DNA of 63,019 nt, the filler included. It is 3 parts of 3 records of this genome, joined end to end, with 100 filler letters (N's around TTAATTAATTAA, not from the genome) between each part and the next. Parts side by side here need not be neighbours in the genome. Positions count along the whole stretch, not along the records: positions 1 to 16,026 come from DRR723986_14593; 2 more parts are not named here. One strand, written 5' to 3'. Below, piece after piece: positions 68-9,258 of this stretch (the stretch's first letter is position 1; each line of letters opens with the position of its first letter). The notes below the pieces were generated by a model. The model worked only from the letters and a program-made list of their open reading frames with translations. It did not search any database and was not told the DNA's origin. A program made the position numbers and the translations under genes.

Positions 68-853
68 GTGACAAGCGACCCCACCGAAGAGCAAACCGAT
101 GTACCTGGGCTCCACAATGCAGAGCCTTACGGTGAAGCGTCTTACAACGCAGCGTCTGATGGACCGATCAAGCCGCCTGGGGCGTTCGGGATCATCGATA
201 TTTTCGTGCTCACAACGCTTGTCGCGTTGGCGGTCGCGATTGCGGCACCATTCTTCCGGGCACTGAACCGGGAAAATCTTGGGCTGGTGGGCGGCATCAT
301 GGCCCTACAAATATCGCTCGTCGTAGCGACAGTCGCCTTTCTTGGCCGGCGACGCAGAAAGGCGCTGGCCATGGCAGGAAGTAAACGGGCGAAGGTCTAC
401 GTCGGCGCGCTTCGCTGGCGTCACTGGCCAATAGTTTTCGCCCTGGTCCAGCTAACTGCCCTCGCCGCGGGGCAGCTTGTTCTGGCATACGTTGTCTCGC
501 AAACGCAACATCTACGCCATTTGCCCTTCCATTGGATTCAAACGAGCCTATTTACTGGTTATGTCGTGGCTCGTTACTTGTGGCGGGCATTCCCTTGCAC
601 CATTGAGGTCTTTGAAAAGGGCTTGATACGCAGCGGATCCACGTTCATCGCTTGGTCCGAATGCGATGTCCGGCACAGCAAAATCTACCCAGGCCGCATC
701 GTCATTGTCCTTAAATCACGAGAGATAAAAGACACGCTGGTCGCGCACGCTCCCGAAGGGCTACAGAACGAGCTCCAAATGCGGGGAATTCTTGCCTCCA
801 GCAGTGCTTCCGAACCGATCGGAGCGAAAAACAGGCAAACTAGGCAAGAATAG
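68..853 (+). CDS. Hypothetical membrane protein (about 4 TM helices)
   Basis: 261-aa ORF with several hydrophobic segments (FGIIDIFVLTTLVALAVA..., WPIVFALVQLTALAAG...); no family recognised. Confidence 0.6.
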   Translation: MTSDPTEEQTDVPGLHNAEPYGEASYNAASDGPIKPPGAFGIIDIFVLTTLVALAVAIAAPFFRALNRENLGLVGGIMALQISLVVATVAFLGRRRRKALAMAGSKRAKVYVGALRWRHWPIVFALVQLTALAAGQLVLAYVVSQTQHLRHLPFHWIQTSLFTGYVVARYLWRAFPCTIEVFEKGLIRSGSTFIAWSECDVRHSKIYPGRIVIVLKSREIKDTLVAHAPEGLQNELQMRGILASSSASEPIGAKNRQTRQE

Positions 854-1132
854 AGCCAAGTCATCGAAAAATCATTGGTGGACTACCGCCGTCCTGCCAC
901 AACGATTCTTTGCCTGCAACAGGCAAGCCGATAGACTAACGGTGAGAACTTCTCCGGATCGCGAAGAATCTACCACGGGGATTCTGCGTGGCGTCTGCCG
1001 AGTCAATCAACGATCGACCGGTCCGACGCGATGCGGCATGGCGGAGAAGGGTAGAGGAACAGGAAACTGAATGGAAAGGTATCGTGAGGCAACTTGCCTT
1101 ACGGTCGGACCTGCCAAACGATGAAGGAAACC

Positions 1133-4100
1133 ATGGCTATTTCCGTTTCAAACACAGTATTTCAAGGAAGAGTTGCTTTGTCTGGTTCCACTTGGCGATG
1201 CGCATGGGCCGCGATTTTCGTGGCCCTGGCGGGATTGACCGCCCCAAAATTGGCAACGGCTCAACAAGAATCGTCACAGCGGGCAATCGCCTACTACGGT
1301 GACGCGGCATCCTTCCAAAACAATGGAGCATTCGATCTAGCGATCGAAGAATGGAACAAACTGCTGAAGGAGTTTCCCAAGGACCCTCTTGCCAGCAAGG
1401 CAGCTCACTACCTAGGTGTCTGTTATGCCAGCCTCCAACCACCCAAACTCGATCAAGCGCTGCAGGCCCTCCGCCGGTCGCTCGAAGATGAAAAACTCGA
1501 CATCCGTGACGAGACGCTGATTCGGGCCGCCGAGCTGCTTTATTCCAAGGGACGATCGTCAGCGGACTCCACAACGCAAAAGGCCGCTTACAGGGAATCA
1601 AAGAAGTATTTGACCGAGTTCATGAAGGAGCACTCCGAGAGTAGCTCTGTCGACCGCGGACTCTTCTACCTGGGTGAAATTGAATACGCCCTCGGCGACC
1701 TCCGCCGCTCAGTTACTTACCACTCTCGGCTGATCGGCGACAAGCGATTTAAGACTTCCAAACTGCTCCCAGACGCACGCTACGCTGTCGCTGTCGCTCG
1801 CGAAGAGCAAGAGCGGTGGAGTGACGCGATCGAAATGCACAAGGAGTTTCTCCAAGAGCACGAATCTCACCGCCTGGCGGATGAAGTCTCCGTGCGACTG
1901 GGCGACATCTACCTGCGAACCGGCGATACGCTCCAGGCGAAGGCCATCCTCGGCAAGCTAACTCAATCCCGCTCATCGGTCGCCGATTACGCCCTCTTGC
2001 GTCTGGGTTACGCACTCAGCCTTAGTGGCGACAAAGCTCGGGCGATCAACTACTACAAAGACTTGTTGAAGCGTTTCCCACAGTCCAAACACGCGTCTGC
2101 AGCGCAACTGTCGTTGGGCCAATTGTTGCTTTCGCAGGGGGATTCCGCCGAGGCGCGTAAGCAGCTCGAGCCGCTAATTGCAGCCAAGGGTGATCTCGGT
2201 TCCCAAGCACTGCATTTGCTCGCGACGATTATGCTTCGTGATGATCCAGAATCCGTCGAATCGCTCCTGGAAAAGAACAGATCCTGGACCAAGACGGCCA
2301 GTAACGCTGTCGACCTGGAAATGGATTACGCCGACGCGTTGTACGCTCAACCGGCGAAACTGGAGCAATCCCTGAAGCTCTACGAAGAAATCGCCACCAA
2401 GCATCAGGAACACTCGATTGCCCCTCGAGCGGCCTACAACACTGCGTTTGCCGCTCTTCAATTGAAGCAATTTGCACAGGCTCGCAAATGGGCCTCGCTC
2501 TTCCTAACTCGCTACCCACAGGATCCGCTTCGCAGCGATGTGGCCTACGTGGCTGCCGAAACGCTCCTGCAACAAGGGGAACATACGGCCGCCGCGGAAG
2601 CATTTGCAAAGCTCCGCCGCAGCGATTCCAGTAATCCGGCCGCTGCGCAGTGGCTCCTGCGTCAAGCGATGGCTTTCTACCTTGGTGGTGAACACGCTAA
2701 GGCTATAGCGCTCCTTCTACCAGAAGTAGACCGCTTCGCGGATGCCCCCGCTCGGGCCGAGGCATACTTTATCCTCGGCGGCAGCAATCTATTCCTCGAG
2801 AACTTGAGCGAAGCCACAGCGCAACTTACCAAGAGCCATGCGGCCAGCACGCGTTGGACCGCCGCGGATGAAGTCCTGCTCTTACTTTCTGAGGCACAGC
2901 AACGCAGCGGGAATCCAGAACAAGCTCTTGCAACACTCAAAGATCTGCTCAAGAATTTCCCACGAACCCGATTGAAGCAACAGGTTGAGTACAAAATGGC
3001 TCAACTCTCTGCAGCGATTGGCAGCTTCGACGAAGCAATTGCTGGTTACCGAGCGGTCACGCAAGACGCCGAGTCTGCTGGCTTCCACCGCTTTGCACAG
3101 TACGGAATTGCCTGGTGCCAAATGCAGCAAGGAAATTTTGATCTGGCACTTGGTGAACTGAAACCATTGTTGAACTCCGATCGACGAGATTCGATCTACA
3201 ACCAAAGCCAGCTCGCCGCAGGCGTTTGTTATCGAAAGACAAACCAACCCGATCGAGCCATTAGTCAGTTAAAGTCATTCCTAGCGTCGAATCCAGATCG
3301 TTCATCTGGTGCCAATGCTACGTATGAACTTGGACTGGCCTACTTGCAACAGGACAAACCTGACGAAGCCGATCGCGTCTTCATGCGTTTGATGAATGAT
3401 GCCCCAGCCTTCGCAAAGATGGATCGGGTTCTTTATGAGCTTGCTTGGAACGCCAAAGACCGGGGCGACGATGAGGCTGCGATGCGGCAGTTCTCCCGAC
3501 TCGCAACACAGTTCGCCGACAGCGAATACGTTCCGGAAGCTCGCTACTTGCTGGGCGAGGTCGCATACGAAGACGGCGACTTCGCAAAGGCAAGCCAACT
3601 CTACCAACAAGTGCTCGACACCGCGGGTGATCAGCCGATTGCCGAAAAAGCTCTTTATAAGATCGGTTGGAGCCGGTTTGAACAGAAACAATATCGCGAG
3701 TCTGAGAAGTCATTCCGGGAGCAAACGAGAAAATTCCCTGACTCAGAATTGGCCATCGAGGGATTGTTCATGGTTGGAGAGTGTCAATTCGAACTCGAGA
3801 ACTACGATGCTGCACTTACTGAGTACAAAAAAGCCCGCGACCTGCTCGAGAAAGGGCGGAAAACGATCGCTTCTCAGCAGGTGCAGTCACTGATCTATCT
3901 TCACGGCGCACAATGTTACCGCGAACGCAAAGACTGGACTCAGTGCCGCCAGTGGCTACAAATAGTCGACCGCAGGTTTAAGGACAGCCCCTTCCACGAC
4001 GTTGCTCGATATGAAATGGCCTACTGCCTGCAGCAACAAGATAAGGACACCGAAGCACTTCAAATCTACGAAGAAGTTGCTCGCGATAATCCACGCGGGG

Positions 4101-4426
4101 AAATCGGCGCTCGATCACGATTCATGAGCGGCCAAGTCTACTTTGCCAAACGTGATTTTGTGACTGCCATCAAAGAATTCCAACGCGTCATGTTTGGATT
4201 CGGCGGCAGTAGCGCTGGGGAGAAAATTAAAAACTGGCAAGCCAAGGCGGCATTCGAGGCCGCTCGGTGCACCGAAGTGCTCGCCGCCGACCGACGGGGC
4301 AGCGACAAACAACAATTGCTCGACAAAGCCCAAGAGTACTACGACTTCATCGTGAAACAGCACGGTGGCCATAGTTTGGCTGCCAAGGCACAATCGCGAC
4401 TCGGCGAACTTCGGAGCCTACGTTAG
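1133..4426 (+). CDS. Large exported tetratricopeptide-repeat protein (CpoB/YbgF- and BamD-like repeats)
   Basis: Signal-peptide-like N-terminus (…KLATA-QQ) and many helical repeats such as FPKDPLASKAAHYLG, FPQSKHASAAQLSLG, FADSEYVPEARYLLG. ATG 1133 follows AAGGA; the ORF track starts at TTG 1094 and another ATG is at 1121. Confidence 0.85.
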   Translation: MAISVSNTVFQGRVALSGSTWRCAWAAIFVALAGLTAPKLATAQQESSQRAIAYYGDAASFQNNGAFDLAIEEWNKLLKEFPKDPLASKAAHYLGVCYASLQPPKLDQALQALRRSLEDEKLDIRDETLIRAAELLYSKGRSSADSTTQKAAYRESKKYLTEFMKEHSESSSVDRGLFYLGEIEYALGDLRRSVTYHSRLIGDKRFKTSKLLPDARYAVAVAREEQERWSDAIEMHKEFLQEHESHRLADEVSVRLGDIYLRTGDTLQAKAILGKLTQSRSSVADYALLRLGYALSLSGDKARAINYYKDLLKRFPQSKHASAAQLSLGQLLLSQGDSAEARKQLEPLIAAKGDLGSQALHLLATIMLRDDPESVESLLEKNRSWTKTASNAVDLEMDYADALYAQPAKLEQSLKLYEEIATKHQEHSIAPRAAYNTAFAALQLKQFAQARKWASLFLTRYPQDPLRSDVAYVAAETLLQQGEHTAAAEAFAKLRRSDSSNPAAAQWLLRQAMAFYLGGEHAKAIALLLPEVDRFADAPARAEAYFILGGSNLFLENLSEATAQLTKSHAASTRWTAADEVLLLLSEAQQRSGNPEQALATLKDLLKNFPRTRLKQQVEYKMAQLSAAIGSFDEAIAGYRAVTQDAESAGFHRFAQYGIAWCQMQQGNFDLALGELKPLLNSDRRDSIYNQSQLAAGVCYRKTNQPDRAISQLKSFLASNPDRSSGANATYELGLAYLQQDKPDEADRVFMRLMNDAPAFAKMDRVLYELAWNAKDRGDDEAAMRQFSRLATQFADSEYVPEARYLLGEVAYEDGDFAKASQLYQQVLDTAGDQPIAEKALYKIGWSRFEQKQYRESEKSFREQTRKFPDSELAIEGLFMVGECQFELENYDAALTEYKKARDLLEKGRKTIASQQVQSLIYLHGAQCYRERKDWTQCRQWLQIVDRRFKDSPFHDVARYEMAYCLQQQDKDTEALQIYEEVARDNPRGEIGARSRFMSGQVYFAKRDFVTAIKEFQRVMFGFGGSSAGEKIKNWQAKAAFEAARCTEVLAADRRGSDKQQLLDKAQEYYDFIVKQHGGHSLAAKAQSRLGELRSLR

Positions 4427-5424
4427 TGAATCTTAAGCCAAAGCAAACTGCCGCTCGGCTCCTGTGCGTCTGCTTCATTGCGTTGACAACGCTGCATGCG
4501 TCGCCAGCCGCTGCTCAGAGGCCAGACCAACCTGCCGGCAACACCACTGCAGGTAACACGACAGCCGGTTCTCCCGAGACGGGTTTCAGCCAAGCGGAGC
4601 TGCAACGACTCGCCGAGGATGGGGCTGCTGATCCAGACGCAGTCGCCGCTCCCACCAGCTCCGGTGTCCGCAATAGCCTCAACTTCCTGTCATTACTGAT
4701 GGAAGGCGGCTGGTTGATGATTCCGATCGCGGCGATGAGCCTGCTGGTCGTGGCCATGACACTTGAGCGATTCGTGGCGGTTCGCAGTGGCAATCTCATG
4801 CCACGTGGGCTGAGACGGGAGATCCGCAAGGCGGTTGACCAGCCACCTGCAACCGTGCCGCCGGTCCTGTACACCGCCTCCGTTCGATACCGCTCAGCAG
4901 CGAGTCGGATCTTGCACGACGTCGTCCTGAAGTCGGGCAGACCAATTCCGGAAGCAGAATCGGCAATTGCCGATGGCTGTCAACGCGAAGCAGATCGGCT
5001 GTACGGAAATGTTCGCTGGCTATCCTTGGCCGCAGCCGTCACGCCATTGATCGGTCTGCTAGGTACGGTCTGGGGAATGATCATCGCTTTTTACAACACA
5101 ACGCAACTGGGAGCGGGTGTCAACAAAGCCGAATTCTTGGCCGAAGGCATTTACGTCGCTCTGGTAACCACGCTTGGTGGCCTCGCGGTCGCAATCCCGG
5201 CAGCGATCTTTGCTCACTTCTTCGAAGGCAAAATCACTCGACTGCTGGCCAAGATCGACGCGGAAATGCGATCGCTGCTTCCCGTCTTGGAACGCCTTGA
5301 GGGAAACGGCCGATTCGATTCCTCGACGCAGCAATTCGTTCAATCTTCCAACCGATCAACCGCCACCAGTCCGATCAAACCGCCTAAACCGCACACGCAA
5401 GACGCGGCCCGCGCTGCCCGCTAA
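4426..5424 (+). CDS. MotA/TolQ/ExbB proton-channel family protein with N-terminal extension
   Basis: Family motifs TPLIGLLGTVWGMI and GIYVALVTTLGGLAVAIPA; GGWLMIPI in TM1; GTG start overlaps the upstream TAG. Confidence 0.93.
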   Translation: MNLKPKQTAARLLCVCFIALTTLHASPAAAQRPDQPAGNTTAGNTTAGSPETGFSQAELQRLAEDGAADPDAVAAPTSSGVRNSLNFLSLLMEGGWLMIPIAAMSLLVVAMTLERFVAVRSGNLMPRGLRREIRKAVDQPPATVPPVLYTASVRYRSAASRILHDVVLKSGRPIPEAESAIADGCQREADRLYGNVRWLSLAAAVTPLIGLLGTVWGMIIAFYNTTQLGAGVNKAEFLAEGIYVALVTTLGGLAVAIPAAIFAHFFEGKITRLLAKIDAEMRSLLPVLERLEGNGRFDSSTQQFVQSSNRSTATSPIKPPKPHTQDAARAAR

Positions 5425-5513
5425 ACTTTGGCGAGTGCCACCACCGGTACTCGGTTCACTCCGGCAGTCGCCTGGATCAAATTGAGCCACAGTACGCCTG
5501 GAACTGCTGCAGT

Positions 5514-5930
5514 ATGACCGTACAACTCAAACAAGGTCGAGTGCTCTCAGCACTCAGCATGACTCCACTGATCGACGTGGTGTTTCTGCTGCTGATCTTC
5601 TTCCTGGTTGCTTCTCGGCTCAGCCAAGAAGATCGCGAAATGGATGTACCGCTGCCATCGGCTGCCAATGCGATGCCCATGACGGCTCAACCGCAAGAAT
5701 TGGTCGTCAACATTGATCGCCGCGGGGCGATCTACGTCAACAACAAGAATATGCAAGCCGAACAGTTCGAACAGTTGTTGCGCGAGAGCATCAGAAACAA
5801 TCCACTCGGGCAGAGCGTCATCATCAGGGCCGATCGACGCGTGCAATTTCAGACACCCGTCAACGTGATGGACATTTGCTTAAAGTGCGGCGCAGATTAC
5901 TCGATATCCACATCAGAGGATGAAGGCTAA
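5514..5930 (+). CDS. ExbD/TolR family protein
   Basis: MTPLIDVVFLLLIFFLV TM helix with the conserved Asp; periplasmic VIIRAD…V..VMD motif. Confidence 0.93.
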   Translation: MTVQLKQGRVLSALSMTPLIDVVFLLLIFFLVASRLSQEDREMDVPLPSAANAMPMTAQPQELVVNIDRRGAIYVNNKNMQAEQFEQLLRESIRNNPLGQSVIIRADRRVQFQTPVNVMDICLKCGADYSISTSEDEG

Positions 5931-8900
5931 AAAGGGGGCACACCTCTCAGCCGCGAGCAGCAGCATGGATCCAGAAATTCGCCTATCAGAGATTACCGGC
6001 ATTGCCGAGAAAGACGAGCAGATTCAGTCGTTCTGGCCGGTCAACGTTGCTCTCTTTCTACTCGGCGGAGCCATTATCGGGCTGTCGTTCTACTTCCTTG
6101 ACTCCAACGAATCACGGCCGCTTTACAATCCGTGGACATACGCCATTGCAACTCCCGTTGCAGTATTGTGTTTATCCACGTTACTCAGCCTGTTCGTGAG
6201 CCGCGTGGTAGAAAAATCCATGCAGTTGGCTTTCTTGCTCAGTGTGCTCATCCACATCCTGCTCCTCGTATTTGCCGTCAACGTCGTCATCTTCTCGCGT
6301 ATGTGGCCGGAAGTCCTTCGAGCGCTTTCACGACAACAACACCAACTTGAACTAGAGTCGCTTCAGGCGCGACAATACCACCAGTTTACCGACGCGTCGA
6401 AGTCAACTCAAAAACCCGACCACCTTCGTTTCGTGCCAACACAACACGAACCAACGAAAATCGAACATTCCAGTACGCAGGCCTTGCAACTGGCGGAAAA
6501 CGACACGCCAGATCTAGCCAGCCCAAGCCCAGAATTAAAGCCGTCACCAACCTCACATCTGCTCAAGCGGAAAGTCACGGCGTCGACTTCGGCCAACACG
6601 GCTCAGGATCTCGCATCGCTGGCGCGCAGCGAATCGAGAGTTACGCCTGATGAATTGCCAACCGAGGCCATGCAGGGTCCAGTACTAAAATCAAGTCCAC
6701 AGCCTGCCCCGATGAAACCGGCCGATCTTGCCCGGCGGGTTGCTCCTGGCACGTCGGAAGCCACCAATCCTGCACTTCAGAACGCGCCACTCCAAGCCTC
6801 CGCGGCAGAAACGCAGCTAAGTCGTCGCGAGACTGCCCGTGACACGGCCATGCTTTCGCCCTCTCAAAGCGATCTGCGACGTAGCGTCCCGCGAGTCAAC
6901 GCGTCGAACCCGACGATTCAGGCCCCACGTCCTCAATCTACACCGGACACTCCCAACTTAGCCGCCTCGTCCGCTCAACCAACGCTTAGCAGACGCAGCT
7001 CAGCCAACGACGCGGCAGTTGCAGCGAAGGCAGCTCGTCCGCCATCAGTTGATCAACTTCAGGCACGCTCAACACCACTTTCTAGTCCACGTCGTGCGCA
7101 GCGTTCTGCTCCATCGGAGGCGCTCTCCAGTGGCATTGAAGCCTATCAACTCAAGCGGCAGACGGCGGGCGGAGTCACAGGCTCGCCCAGCAAAGTCTCA
7201 TTGCCCAATCTTGGCCAACAACAAATTGCTGCATCGCAAAATCAAATCCCCAGACTGCAGGCTTCAAACGAGTCGCGCAAGCGTGGTACTCAATCGCGCC
7301 TGCGGAGTGCCGATAGCCTAGGCGACTTGGCACCACAGAGTCCGAACTGGGAGGGGCAGGTTTCGCAGGGCTCGTCCACGGGCGGTAACGCTCCGCAAAT
7401 GCTTCGCAACGATCCGGGAAGTGCTGCGTCACCAAGCGTCGACGGACTCTCCGGTGAAGGACGTGATATTGTCCGCGCTGCACTTGGCGGATCCACTTCT
7501 TCGCCGAACGTGCAGCCACTGCGTGACGCCACCGACGGCGGGGCAGGCGAATCTGGCGGCAGCACAAGCCTTGCTGATGCCGGAGATAGCGCACCTTCGC
7601 CCGCCCGTCAGCAGTCTTCTGATCGCTTGACGCCTTCTGGCAATGACTCCAGCCAGCTAGCCGAGCTGGCACCTGACTTCGGAAGCACGGATTCGTCTAG
7701 CTCAGCGTCCTCGCAATCCATGCTCAGCCAAGCATCGCGACTGCAGCGAAAACAACGCGGATCATCCGAAACGTCCAGCACACAATCCAGCGCAGACGCA
7801 ACGCTCCCTCGCGCCAGCACATTCAACATCATCGACGATGCTCAGTCGAGAGTCCCCTCACTTGCCGGCGCAACAACGGCATCTGACTCACAAGTTGAGC
7901 GGGCAGCCGCCCAAGGAACAGGCCTTCGCCGACAACAGCGTTTCGAGACCTCGGGTAGTCTGAACCTAGAAGTTGACGCTGATATGGGCTTAGCGGGCCT
8001 GGACACTACCAAGAATGTTCGTGGCCCCTTGTTGGCTAGGCGAGAATCCACCGCTTCGGCCAATCCGCTTCCGCAACTGGATAGCAGCCGGTTCGCACGG
8101 CAAAACTTGGGTGGTCCTCTGGCGGGCGGGCAACGCGTTCCCATTCCCAAGCCCGCCTTCCAACAACGCATCGACCGTCTGCAGGACAAACGCCCAGCAA
8201 GTGAATCCAGCATTAGCCCTCAAACTGAACTAGCCATTGAACGCGGGCTTGAGTTCCTCGCTCGCACCCAGCGCGATGATGGCTCTTGGCGACTAGAGGA
8301 CTACGACACCAAACTGCTGATGAGGAGCGACACTGCGGCGACGGGTTTGGCAGTTCTATCCTTCCAGGGGGCAGGCTATACACACCAACGATTCAAGCAC
8401 GCCGATACCGTCCGCAAAGCCCTAAGTTTCCTTGTTCGTAACCAGCAGGAAGACGGCGACCTCTACATCAAGATGAACCCCGCATCTGATCAGAACGCCT
8501 GGCTTTACTCGCATGCAATCGCCGCCTTGGCCCTCTGCGAGGCCTATGGCATGACGCAGGACCCCGAACTTGAACAAGCCGCGCAGAAGTCCGTCAACTT
8601 CATGATCTCTGCTCAAGACCCTCGGCGTGGCGGTTGGCGGTATCAGCCTGGCGACGGCTCTGATACCAGCGTCAGCGGCTGGTTCTTGATGGCTCTCAAG
8701 AGTGGTCAACTAGCGGGACTGGACATTCCCAAGAGTTCACTTGAGACACTGAATCGGTTCTTGTATTTGAGCCAAGCGTCCGCGGAACAGTCACATCTGT
8801 ATCGGTACAATCCGTACGCGGCTGACACCGTTCAACAACGCCATGGACTCAAGCCAACCGCTGTCATGACTAGCGTTGGTTTGCTAATGCGACTGTACAC

Positions 8901-9258
8901 GGGCTGGGATCGAAATCGCGACGACATGCAAGCTGGAGCTGATTATCTACTGGAGCATTTGCCCAAGCACGGCACTCCCAACAAGAGTCTTCGCGATACT
9001 TACTATTGGTACTATGCCACCCAGGTAATGTTCCACATGCAGGGTGAACACTGGTCGACCTGGCACGACACGTTGTATCCGCTGCTTGTTAATCACCAAG
9101 TCACGTCTGGAGAATATGCTGGCAGTTGGAATCCACAATCGCCAACCCCGGACTTGTGGGCTCGCTACGGCGGACGACTCTACGTCACGACGATGAACTT
9201 GCTCTCGCTTGAGGTCAGCTACCGGCACTTGCCGCTTTACGAAGCCGCCTCACAGTAG
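5920..9258 (+). CDS. Membrane-anchored protein: TonB/TolA-like SxxxH helix, long Ser/Pro/Ala/Gln-rich linker, C-terminal prenyltransferase/squalene-cyclase-like (alpha/alpha)6 barrel
   Basis: Three N-terminal hydrophobic helices, the third containing SVLIH (nt 6241-6255); low-complexity residues ~130-765; QW-type repeats (GLEFLARTQRDDGSW, ALSFLVRNQQEDG, AQDPRRGGWRY, HQ…AGSW) from ~residue 768. Confidence 0.8.
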   Translation: MKAKKGAHLSAASSSMDPEIRLSEITGIAEKDEQIQSFWPVNVALFLLGGAIIGLSFYFLDSNESRPLYNPWTYAIATPVAVLCLSTLLSLFVSRVVEKSMQLAFLLSVLIHILLLVFAVNVVIFSRMWPEVLRALSRQQHQLELESLQARQYHQFTDASKSTQKPDHLRFVPTQHEPTKIEHSSTQALQLAENDTPDLASPSPELKPSPTSHLLKRKVTASTSANTAQDLASLARSESRVTPDELPTEAMQGPVLKSSPQPAPMKPADLARRVAPGTSEATNPALQNAPLQASAAETQLSRRETARDTAMLSPSQSDLRRSVPRVNASNPTIQAPRPQSTPDTPNLAASSAQPTLSRRSSANDAAVAAKAARPPSVDQLQARSTPLSSPRRAQRSAPSEALSSGIEAYQLKRQTAGGVTGSPSKVSLPNLGQQQIAASQNQIPRLQASNESRKRGTQSRLRSADSLGDLAPQSPNWEGQVSQGSSTGGNAPQMLRNDPGSAASPSVDGLSGEGRDIVRAALGGSTSSPNVQPLRDATDGGAGESGGSTSLADAGDSAPSPARQQSSDRLTPSGNDSSQLAELAPDFGSTDSSSSASSQSMLSQASRLQRKQRGSSETSSTQSSADATLPRASTFNIIDDAQSRVPSLAGATTASDSQVERAAAQGTGLRRQQRFETSGSLNLEVDADMGLAGLDTTKNVRGPLLARRESTASANPLPQLDSSRFARQNLGGPLAGGQRVPIPKPAFQQRIDRLQDKRPASESSISPQTELAIERGLEFLARTQRDDGSWRLEDYDTKLLMRSDTAATGLAVLSFQGAGYTHQRFKHADTVRKALSFLVRNQQEDGDLYIKMNPASDQNAWLYSHAIAALALCEAYGMTQDPELEQAAQKSVNFMISAQDPRRGGWRYQPGDGSDTSVSGWFLMALKSGQLAGLDIPKSSLETLNRFLYLSQASAEQSHLYRYNPYAADTVQQRHGLKPTAVMTSVGLLMRLYTGWDRNRDDMQAGADYLLEHLPKHGTPNKSLRDTYYWYYATQVMFHMQGEHWSTWHDTLYPLLVNHQVTSGEYAGSWNPQSPTPDLWARYGGRLYVTTMNLLSLEVSYRHLPLYEAASQ

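Follow-up and report, generated by a model that had tools for sequence, protein, structure and literature searches.

A candidate motor-coupled TonB/TolA analogue with a toroid head in a Tol-like four-gene locus of a Pirellulaceae planctomycete

The four-gene locus and its motor subunits

The window analysed here is a stretch of 63,019 nucleotides (nt), joined from three parts of a planctomycete genome that is related, among named organisms, to Aureliella and other Pirellulaceae. Between positions 1094 and 9258 it carries four open reading frames (ORFs) on the same strand (+), arranged head to tail, which encode a giant exported TPR protein, a member of the ExbB/TolQ family, a member of the ExbD/TolR family and a protein of 1112 amino acids (aa) that we regard as a candidate force transducer. 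An earlier interpretation of this DNA from its letters only (hereafter the sequence-only reading) had described four tightly coupled genes of exactly these kinds, and the ORF calls together with the Pfam and NCBIfam matches bear it out: the successive junctions are a 1-nt overlap, an 89-nt gap and an 11-nt overlap. The fourth ORF is called at 5920..9258 (+). Its homologues carry the membrane motif described below at about residue 93, not at residue 108, so that the true start is probably M16 (nt 5965), in which case the junction between exbD and the fourth gene would become a 34-nt gap.

The TPR protein (1094..4426, +; 1110 aa) is called from a TTG start at 1094, with in-frame ATGs at 1121 and 1133, and possesses one N-terminal hydrophobic segment (residues 36-54), which is consistent with a signal peptide. 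It matches TPR families of Pfam, is also BamD-like, and contains nine stretches of the YbgF family TIGR02795, which reaches 270.9 bits where the cut-off is 90.1. With NF008068, the model of full-length CpoB, the score is 89 bits, the cut-off being 383. It thus resembles CpoB/YbgF as an exported TPR protein encoded together with a motor, and differs from them in its 1110 aa and roughly nine modules, over which the TIGR02795 score is summed.

The ExbB homologue (4426..5424, +; 332 aa; PF01618, 1.2e-24), the proton-channel subunit, has an N-terminal signal-like segment followed by three membrane segments. An extension of about 60 residues precedes its first membrane helix and recalls the 'long ExbB' forms mentioned in PMC9008036. 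The ExbD homologue (5514..5930, +; 138 aa; PF02472, 1.3e-27) possesses the membrane aspartate D21, which is invariant in all 42 aligned ExbDs. The best NCBIfam match of the ExbB homologue is TolQ (2.6e-16), and for both subunits the TolQ and TolR scores are slightly above those of ExbB and ExbD. All of them remain below the equivalog cut-offs (TIGR02796, TolQ: 60 against 221; TIGR02801, TolR: 61.8 against 127.3), and the two proteins are members at the family level only (PF01618, PF02472), not TolQ and TolR equivalogs.

Anchor, linker and head of the 1112-aa protein

The N-terminal membrane module of the 1112-aa protein (6028..6297, +) comprises three hydrophobic segments in the hydropathy profile (residues 37-62, 73-98 and 96-133), of which the third helix proper is assigned to about residues 100-126. 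The sequence-only reading had placed S108-V-L-I-H112 (6241..6255, +) in a transmembrane (TM) helix, and the motif is indeed present in the third segment; the helix is one of three instead of a single one, and the Leu and Ser of a full SHLS pattern are absent. An AlphaFold2 (AF2) model of residues 16-227, built from an 80-sequence alignment, has a mean predicted local distance difference test (pLDDT) score of 73, rising to 80-95 in the membrane part, and places helices at 39-59, 71-92 and 98-151, the last being one unbroken helix in which TM3 runs about 25 residues past the membrane, to about residue 151. S-x3-H is the motif through which the helices of TonB and TolA bind their motors (PMC12204202).

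The conservation of this motif, on which the sequence-only reading depended, holds well beyond the nearest relatives. S-x3-H is found in 112 of 120 close homologues, and the eight without it are at most 850 aa long and start within the linker. A phmmer search with residues 16-187 against 1.84 billion cluster representatives (50%-identity clusters) returned 192 representatives at E<=1e-3, all from the transducer's own family. Among the 150 representatives listed, the H112 column holds His in 145, the exceptions being Asn (three), Tyr (one) and a fragment of 64 aa, while the Ser108 column holds Ser in 114 and Cys, Gly or Ala in 35. Across 57 diverse proteins of full length, no residue ahead of position 747 is invariant except S108 and H112; when 23 distant long forms are added (80 sequences), the His is the sole invariant column in the first 212 residues. 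The barrel described below is carried by 80 of the 82 listed N-module representatives of at least 800 aa, and, judged by this search, the three-helix module is restricted to the transducer family.

The orientation of the protein can be estimated from its loops. In the 80-sequence alignment the loop ahead of TM3 is the most positive (Lys plus Arg 2.31 per 8 residues, net +1.61), in comparison with a net charge of -0.42 for loop 1, and by the positive-inside rule this bias indicates that TM3 runs from inside to outside and that the C-terminal part is periplasmic. Several paralogues of the barrel directly follow classical signal peptides. Both observations favour a periplasmic barrel, and the cytoplasmic C-terminus that would have spoken against the sequence-only reading is not what they predict.

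Conservation in 111 full-length homologues is confined to the N-module (about residues 38-180) and the C-domain (about 740-1112), and residues from about 240 to 680 are not conserved. The low-complexity linker (6325..8199, +) comprises about 625-630 residues; residues 136-760 are rich in Ser (15%), Ala (13%), Leu, Gln and Pro (9% each) and Arg (8%), and no tandem repeat was found in the DNA. Relatives range from 812 to 2293 aa, a variation due to the linker. A linker of about 630 low-complexity residues followed by QW-type repeats had been proposed before, and it agrees with the composition, the lack of conservation and the three repeats found in the head.

About 40 residues beyond TM3 lies a proline-bounded, conserved segment, P166-DHLRFV-P173-TQH176 (6415..6447, +). 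It occupies the place where an ExbD-binding 'D-box' or 'motor box', as described in PMC10907165 and PMC12204202, would be expected by analogy, and it is a candidate for such an element. A co-fold of two copies of ExbD residues 40-138 with transducer residues 127-215, in which the supplied alignments were not used, gave a score of 0.03 (mark 0.34), a value that counts neither for nor against binding.

The C-terminal domain (8200..9258, +) was modelled with AF2 from 65 sequences (residues 736-1112; pLDDT 88.8, predicted template modelling score 0.88) and is all-helical, with 16 helices. Foldseek found its best PDB matches in AprG (9lfq), 8paj and MstE (6sbb), with E of about 2e-7 and TM-scores of about 0.6. 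VIA-align, run against 48,161 chains, placed squalene-hopene cyclase 1gsz at the top (Z 25.8 over 293 residues, root mean square deviation 3.6), followed by 8paj, a single-domain squalene-hopene-cyclase-like protein (Z 25.6), and then by drimenyl diphosphate synthase and oxidosqualene cyclase. The (alpha/alpha)6 barrel head foreseen by the sequence-only reading is thus recovered by model and structure comparison alike. Glycoside hydrolases and epimerases follow close behind (Z 20-22.7), and because they score nearly as well the fold does not name a chemistry.

The only family match of the transducer is SQHop_cyclase_C (PF13243; 1.4e-4, 21.4 bits against a cut-off of 26.1), a cut-off that some paralogues just pass with 26.2-29.1 bits, and TIGR01787 gives 29.8 against 322.7. 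Three QW-like repeats occur in the barrel, at residues 779, 837 and 894; an alignment of the QW region to lanosterol synthase is not significant (E 0.24), and a motif search of the transducer found no DxDD, DDxxD or CGEQ. Pfam shows no match to TonB_C, TolA domain III or vWA in the transducer, and NCBIfam none to TonB_C or TolA. A search of PDB sequences with the family profile returned nothing significant, its best hit (E 0.097) being the low-complexity linker of TolA, which we ascribe to composition. On the model, the head resembles terpene cyclases in its (alpha/alpha)6 toroid and lacks the catalytic motif of class II. It shares the barrel and the QW repeats with class II terpene-cyclase-like proteins (8paj, 1gsz, AprG, MstE), with Z values of 22-25.8 over 277-294 residues, and is distinguished from them by an identity of only 13-18%, the lack of DxDD, family scores below the cut-offs, a membrane tether and a predicted periplasmic location. 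An alpha-2-macroglobulin thioester domain (TED) was also considered and rejected, as the protein has no CGEQ and no TED entry stands among the 50 VIA-align rows listed; a weak, sub-threshold TED match was found in one barrel paralogue.

Gene linkage and barrel paralogues in other genomes

Gene order was surveyed across 185,579 species genomes, in which 543 stretches were confirmed among the first 600 pattern matches. The best 80 loci were analysed; all are of Pirellulales type, with a barrel identity of 56-72%, and 66 of them have enough upstream sequence to judge. In 61 of these 66, exbD lies directly upstream of the barrel gene (X) on the same strand. The full order TPR-exbB-exbD-X is found in 27 of the 61, exbB-exbD-X in one and exbD-X only in 28, and in the remaining five the upstream sequence is too short to judge exbB. 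Consequently exbB belongs to the cluster in 28 of the 56 loci that can be evaluated for it, and the TPR gene in 27, where a relative of the TPR protein (31-47% identity) stands upstream of exbB. The consistent linkage to exbBD anticipated by the sequence-only reading therefore stands for exbD, and for exbB in only half of the loci: the tight, persistent pair is exbD and the barrel gene.

Two genomes illustrate how the larger cluster comes apart. In a Pirellula-type locus (L026), which has exbD-X only, as 27 similar loci do, a thioredoxin-family gene (L026:7088-7906, +) takes the place of exbB; the exbB orthologue of the Pirellula-type genome (48% identity) is found elsewhere, without exbD, behind an 823-aa protein (L087:8287-10758) to which no Pfam family could be assigned. 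In the genome of L001, where the barrel gene has no exbD upstream, TPR-exbB-exbD is intact on another contig. Small genes of mobile type, namely a PIN-domain gene and an ORF that looks by eye like part of an addiction module, lie at the break points (L088:467-676, +; L001:1052-1507, -), which hints at a rearrangement.

The barrel itself reaches far beyond this locus. Searched alone at E<=1e-20, it was found in 266 of the 301 Planctomycetota genomes sampled. Most barrel-bearing genomes contain several matches (up to six candidates were scored in each), which are 33-45% identical and belong to ORFs about 490-800 aa long. Each of two related genomes sampled has one high-scoring orthologue. The Protein Atlas clusters of a paralogue bear the names 'hypothetical' or 'prenyltransferase and squalene oxidase repeat' protein. 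We examined 44 paralogue loci with 52 barrel ORFs, a sample biased towards the best-scoring paralogues. S-x3-H lies within a hydrophobic segment upstream of the barrel in 39 of the 52, compared with two of 203 ORFs from the same loci that bear a hydrophobic segment and no barrel, many of which are probably spurious. Most of the 39 possess, in this order, a basic residue with P-W, a single helix, a short stretch of alternating hydrophobic residues and a Glu/Pro-rich stalk; this is the layout of TonB, and an anchor of the same type is present in a protein with TonB_C from a related genome. The barrel is hence a general periplasmic module, most often borne on a TonB-type anchor, and its recognition as a phylum-wide paralogue family of this kind is new here.

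Three loci (L104, L113 and L117), from three other genomes, have exbD directly upstream of paralogues of 744-754 aa with two hydrophobic segments; in the other 41 sampled loci no directly linked exbD was found within about 4 kb. Single-helix, TonB-anchored paralogues often form tandem arrays: L121 contains four copies, while L092, L124, L126 and L130 have two apiece, and no motor gene was found within about 4 kb of the arrays. Beyond small groups of three to five loci each, no recurrent neighbour of the single-helix paralogues was found. One subfamily of five loci (e.g. L103:9-2213, 2230-3345, 3500-5050) directly follows a gene for a SurA-like peptidyl-prolyl isomerase, which mfd precedes in four of them. 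A protein of 1192 aa (L097:3977-7555, -) combines an Hsp70/DnaK-like N-terminus, a membrane helix with His and no Ser at -4, and the barrel. In L107 the barrel ORF (L107:1403-4969) directly follows a sigma-70 gene of the extracytoplasmic function (ECF) type (L107:853-1410, +), and in L124 the paralogue at 5742-7466 (-) has a zinc-finger-like Cys-x2-Cys N-terminus ahead of its membrane helix. Judging from such anti-sigma-like paralogues, the toroid may also serve as a periplasmic sensor domain.

A proposed motor-coupled transducer and its alternatives

We consider it likely that the 1112-aa protein is a motor-coupled analogue of TonB and TolA with a new head, and that it belongs to a Tol-like, four-gene system of this Pirellulaceae planctomycete which spans the envelope and is driven by the proton motive force (PMF). 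The ExbB/TolQ and ExbD/TolR homologues would constitute the inner-membrane motor, and the 1112-aa protein would take the role of TonB or TolA, its TM3 presenting S108 and H112 to the outside of the ExbB ring. The highly conserved (alpha/alpha)6 barrel would act as the head and take hold of a partner or ligand at the level of the peptidoglycan or the outer membrane, and the exported TPR protein would act as a periplasmic scaffold similar to CpoB/YbgF. The analyses above demonstrate which genes are present, the motif with its conservation, the fold, the linkage of the gene to exbD and the pairing of the barrel with TonB-type anchors across the phylum; docking to the motor, dependence on PMF, transmission of force, the barrel's periplasmic location and its partner, the physiological role and any link to an enlarged periplasm are inferred.

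In its general plan the protein resembles TonB and TolA. All three possess S-x3-H in a helix that runs from inside to outside (here as predicted), a long middle part and a globular C-terminal head; the gene follows exbD/tolR, and a TPR gene is present, as is CpoB/YbgF in tol-pal. The parts themselves are different: TonB and TolA have a small TonB_C or TolA-III head instead of a toroid of about 350 aa, and the linker here has about 630 residues, is rich in S, A, L, Q, P and R, and is disordered. Also unlike Ton and Tol systems, no TonB-dependent receptor, TolB or Pal was found among the ten flanking ORFs scanned, in agreement with the sequence-only reading, which had noted that none is adjacent.

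Five related genomes contain 7-11 matches to the MotA/ExbB family each. In four of the five, all Pirellulales and with 7-9 such matches, no TonB_C, TonB-dependent receptor barrel or TolB_N was found; TolB_N was likewise not found in the fifth, and these genome-wide searches did not include Pal. Only one of the five genomes yielded TonB_C and a TonB-dependent receptor barrel, which lie side by side there (L133:498-2885, +; 4203-5036, -; 5478-7913, +): the canonical TonB_C gene is next to the only receptor detected, and a secreted protein of 795 aa, vWA-like by eye, is nearby. A search for TonB_2 was uninformative, as its control matched in none of 14 genomes. Of the planctomycete genomes available at its time, PMC3422733 reported TonB in no more than four. 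We find TonB_C in 209 of 301 Planctomycetota genomes, which means that the barrel proteins are no general replacement for TonB, and we dropped the idea that they replace it throughout the phylum.

To our knowledge, TonB and TolA were for long the sole known carriers of energy from the inner membrane to the outer envelope. A class of transducers with vWA heads was added in 2025 (PMC12204202), combining an SHLS-type anchor, a disordered region and a non-TonB head; in PVC bacteria their genes lie downstream of TPR, tolQ-like and tolR-like genes. Judged by the main text of that article, this is the closest published case, and it shares with our locus the operon logic of a gene for a TPR protein, a tolQ-like and a tolR-like one and a His-anchored transducer. 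The systems differ in that the vWA transducers have a vWA head, a domain II of about 100 residues and two tolR-like genes, while the protein described here has a toroid head, one exbD, a far longer linker and a three-helix anchor. The strings terpen-, toroid, cyclase, squalene and prenyl- do not occur in the main text of PMC12204202, whose supplements might list other head types, and we found no description of a toroid-headed transducer in the main texts of the literature searched. If the proposed coupling is true, a toroid-headed class would represent a third type of head and would explain part of the 7-9 ExbB-family matches seen in those four Pirellulales genomes in which neither TonB_C nor a receptor was detected. 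It would also provide concrete genes for envelope maintenance or import in planctomycetes, with a single His, a single Asp and a head domain as the points to address.

With respect to physiology, a housekeeping, Tol-like role in envelope maintenance is favoured over the import of nutrients, because of the core-chromosome setting (the remaining window carries secY, rpoA, dnaB and acyl-CoA carboxylase genes), the single high-scoring orthologue in each of two genomes, a motor that leans towards TolQR and the YbgF-type repeats.

Several observations weigh against a motor-coupled transducer. The anchor has three helices and not the single one of TonB and TolA, and their full SHLS spacing is not present: A119 stands at His+7, where Leu is expected, and V123 at His+11, where Ser is expected, the family consensus after the motif His being H-x6-A-x-N. 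No relative of the N-module is detectable by phmmer among TonB, TolA or the vWA transducers, and S-x3-H could be convergent or could serve the packing of the protein's own three-helix bundle. No strand is seen for the D-box candidate in the AF2 monomer model, and its consensus has a proline in mid-segment in the wider alignments of 57 and 80 sequences. The linker is neither Pro-rich nor helical. To these points can be added the five of 66 loci without exbD upstream, the 28 of 56 without exbB, and the wide presence of TonB_C in the phylum. Finally, barrels that follow plain signal peptides or anti-sigma-like N-termini imply a head that is workable without a motor, and the barrel is conserved at least as well as any other part (in L079 the identities are 60% for the barrel, 49% for ExbD, 38% for ExbB and 31% for the TPR protein). 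Together with the polar residues E874, D915, R1086, E1098 and R1102, which are kept across the paralogues, this conservation agrees with an enzyme or with a pocket for a specific ligand.

The last point leads to the most serious alternative, which we nevertheless regard as unlikely: the protein might be a membrane-tethered periplasmic enzyme or binding protein, with a glycan, isoprenoid lipid or peptide as substrate or ligand of the toroid, and not be driven mechanically; Ser and His would then serve helix packing or oligomerisation, and the adjacency to exbD would reflect that envelope genes are co-regulated. (alpha/alpha)6 toroids are mostly enzymes, and in the structure comparison terpene cyclases score best (Z 22-26), with glycoside hydrolases and sugar epimerases close behind. 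The barrel is very highly conserved over the 80 loci, its polar residues persist in paralogues of 33-45% identity, some of which are simply secreted, and the N-module lacks homology to TonB or TolA. However, the protein lacks DxDD and DDxxD as well as a thioester motif, and D804, which belongs to a cyclase-like 'SDTA' stretch, is not kept in the paralogues. A mid-membrane His that is invariant over very divergent sequences and stands four residues after a small residue is moreover the known signature of motor docking; its frequency among the paralogues, in contrast to the background ORFs, and the position of exbD directly upstream in 61 of 66 loci speak against this alternative as well. The two explanations are compatible, since the head could be both catalytic and driven.

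Alternatively, the protein could take part in trans-envelope signalling, the barrel sensing a periplasmic ligand, the membrane module relaying the signal as in anti-sigma factors, and ExbBD modulating it. The paralogue barrels with anti-sigma-like N-termini or beside ECF sigma genes (L107, L124) speak for this possibility, which is nonetheless very improbable for the protein of the window: only about 20 cytoplasmic residues precede TM1, no cytoplasmic output domain is recognisable, and the conserved operon contains neither a sigma factor nor a regulator. That unrelated envelope genes merely happen to stand side by side is scarcely credible, as exbD and the barrel gene stay adjacent over barrel identities that fall from 72% to about 33%, and in different lineages, while the flanks change, even if exbB and the TPR gene are missing in half of the evaluable loci and exbD in five.

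Returning to the motor-coupled transducer, a broader generalisation can be drawn from the paralogues, which we offer as a rather doubtful speculation. Planctomycetota might possess a second class of trans-envelope machines, powered by PMF and independent of receptors, in which toroid heads on TonB-type anchors, several per genome and often in tandem, share a few ExbBD/TolQR motors. Each head would grip a different periplasmic or outer-membrane ligand, for instance a glycan chain or a lipid-linked polymer, which the motor would reel in, and the uptake of macromolecules or the remodelling of the envelope would thus be energised without TonB-dependent barrels. The exbD-linked member of the window, with its long tether and its TPR scaffold, would then be the housekeeping core of the class in Pirellulaceae.

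The surroundings of the four genes are briefly described here. A scan for promoters and terminators found sites no more numerous than in shuffled sequences, and the ends of the operon are not defined by it. An upstream ORF (68..853, +; 261 aa) with several hydrophobic stretches by eye was considered as a fifth member of the operon and dropped, as it has no relative in the 80 related loci; it matches no Pfam family either, and may be lineage-specific or not a gene. On the downstream side the operon is flanked by a convergent fpg gene.

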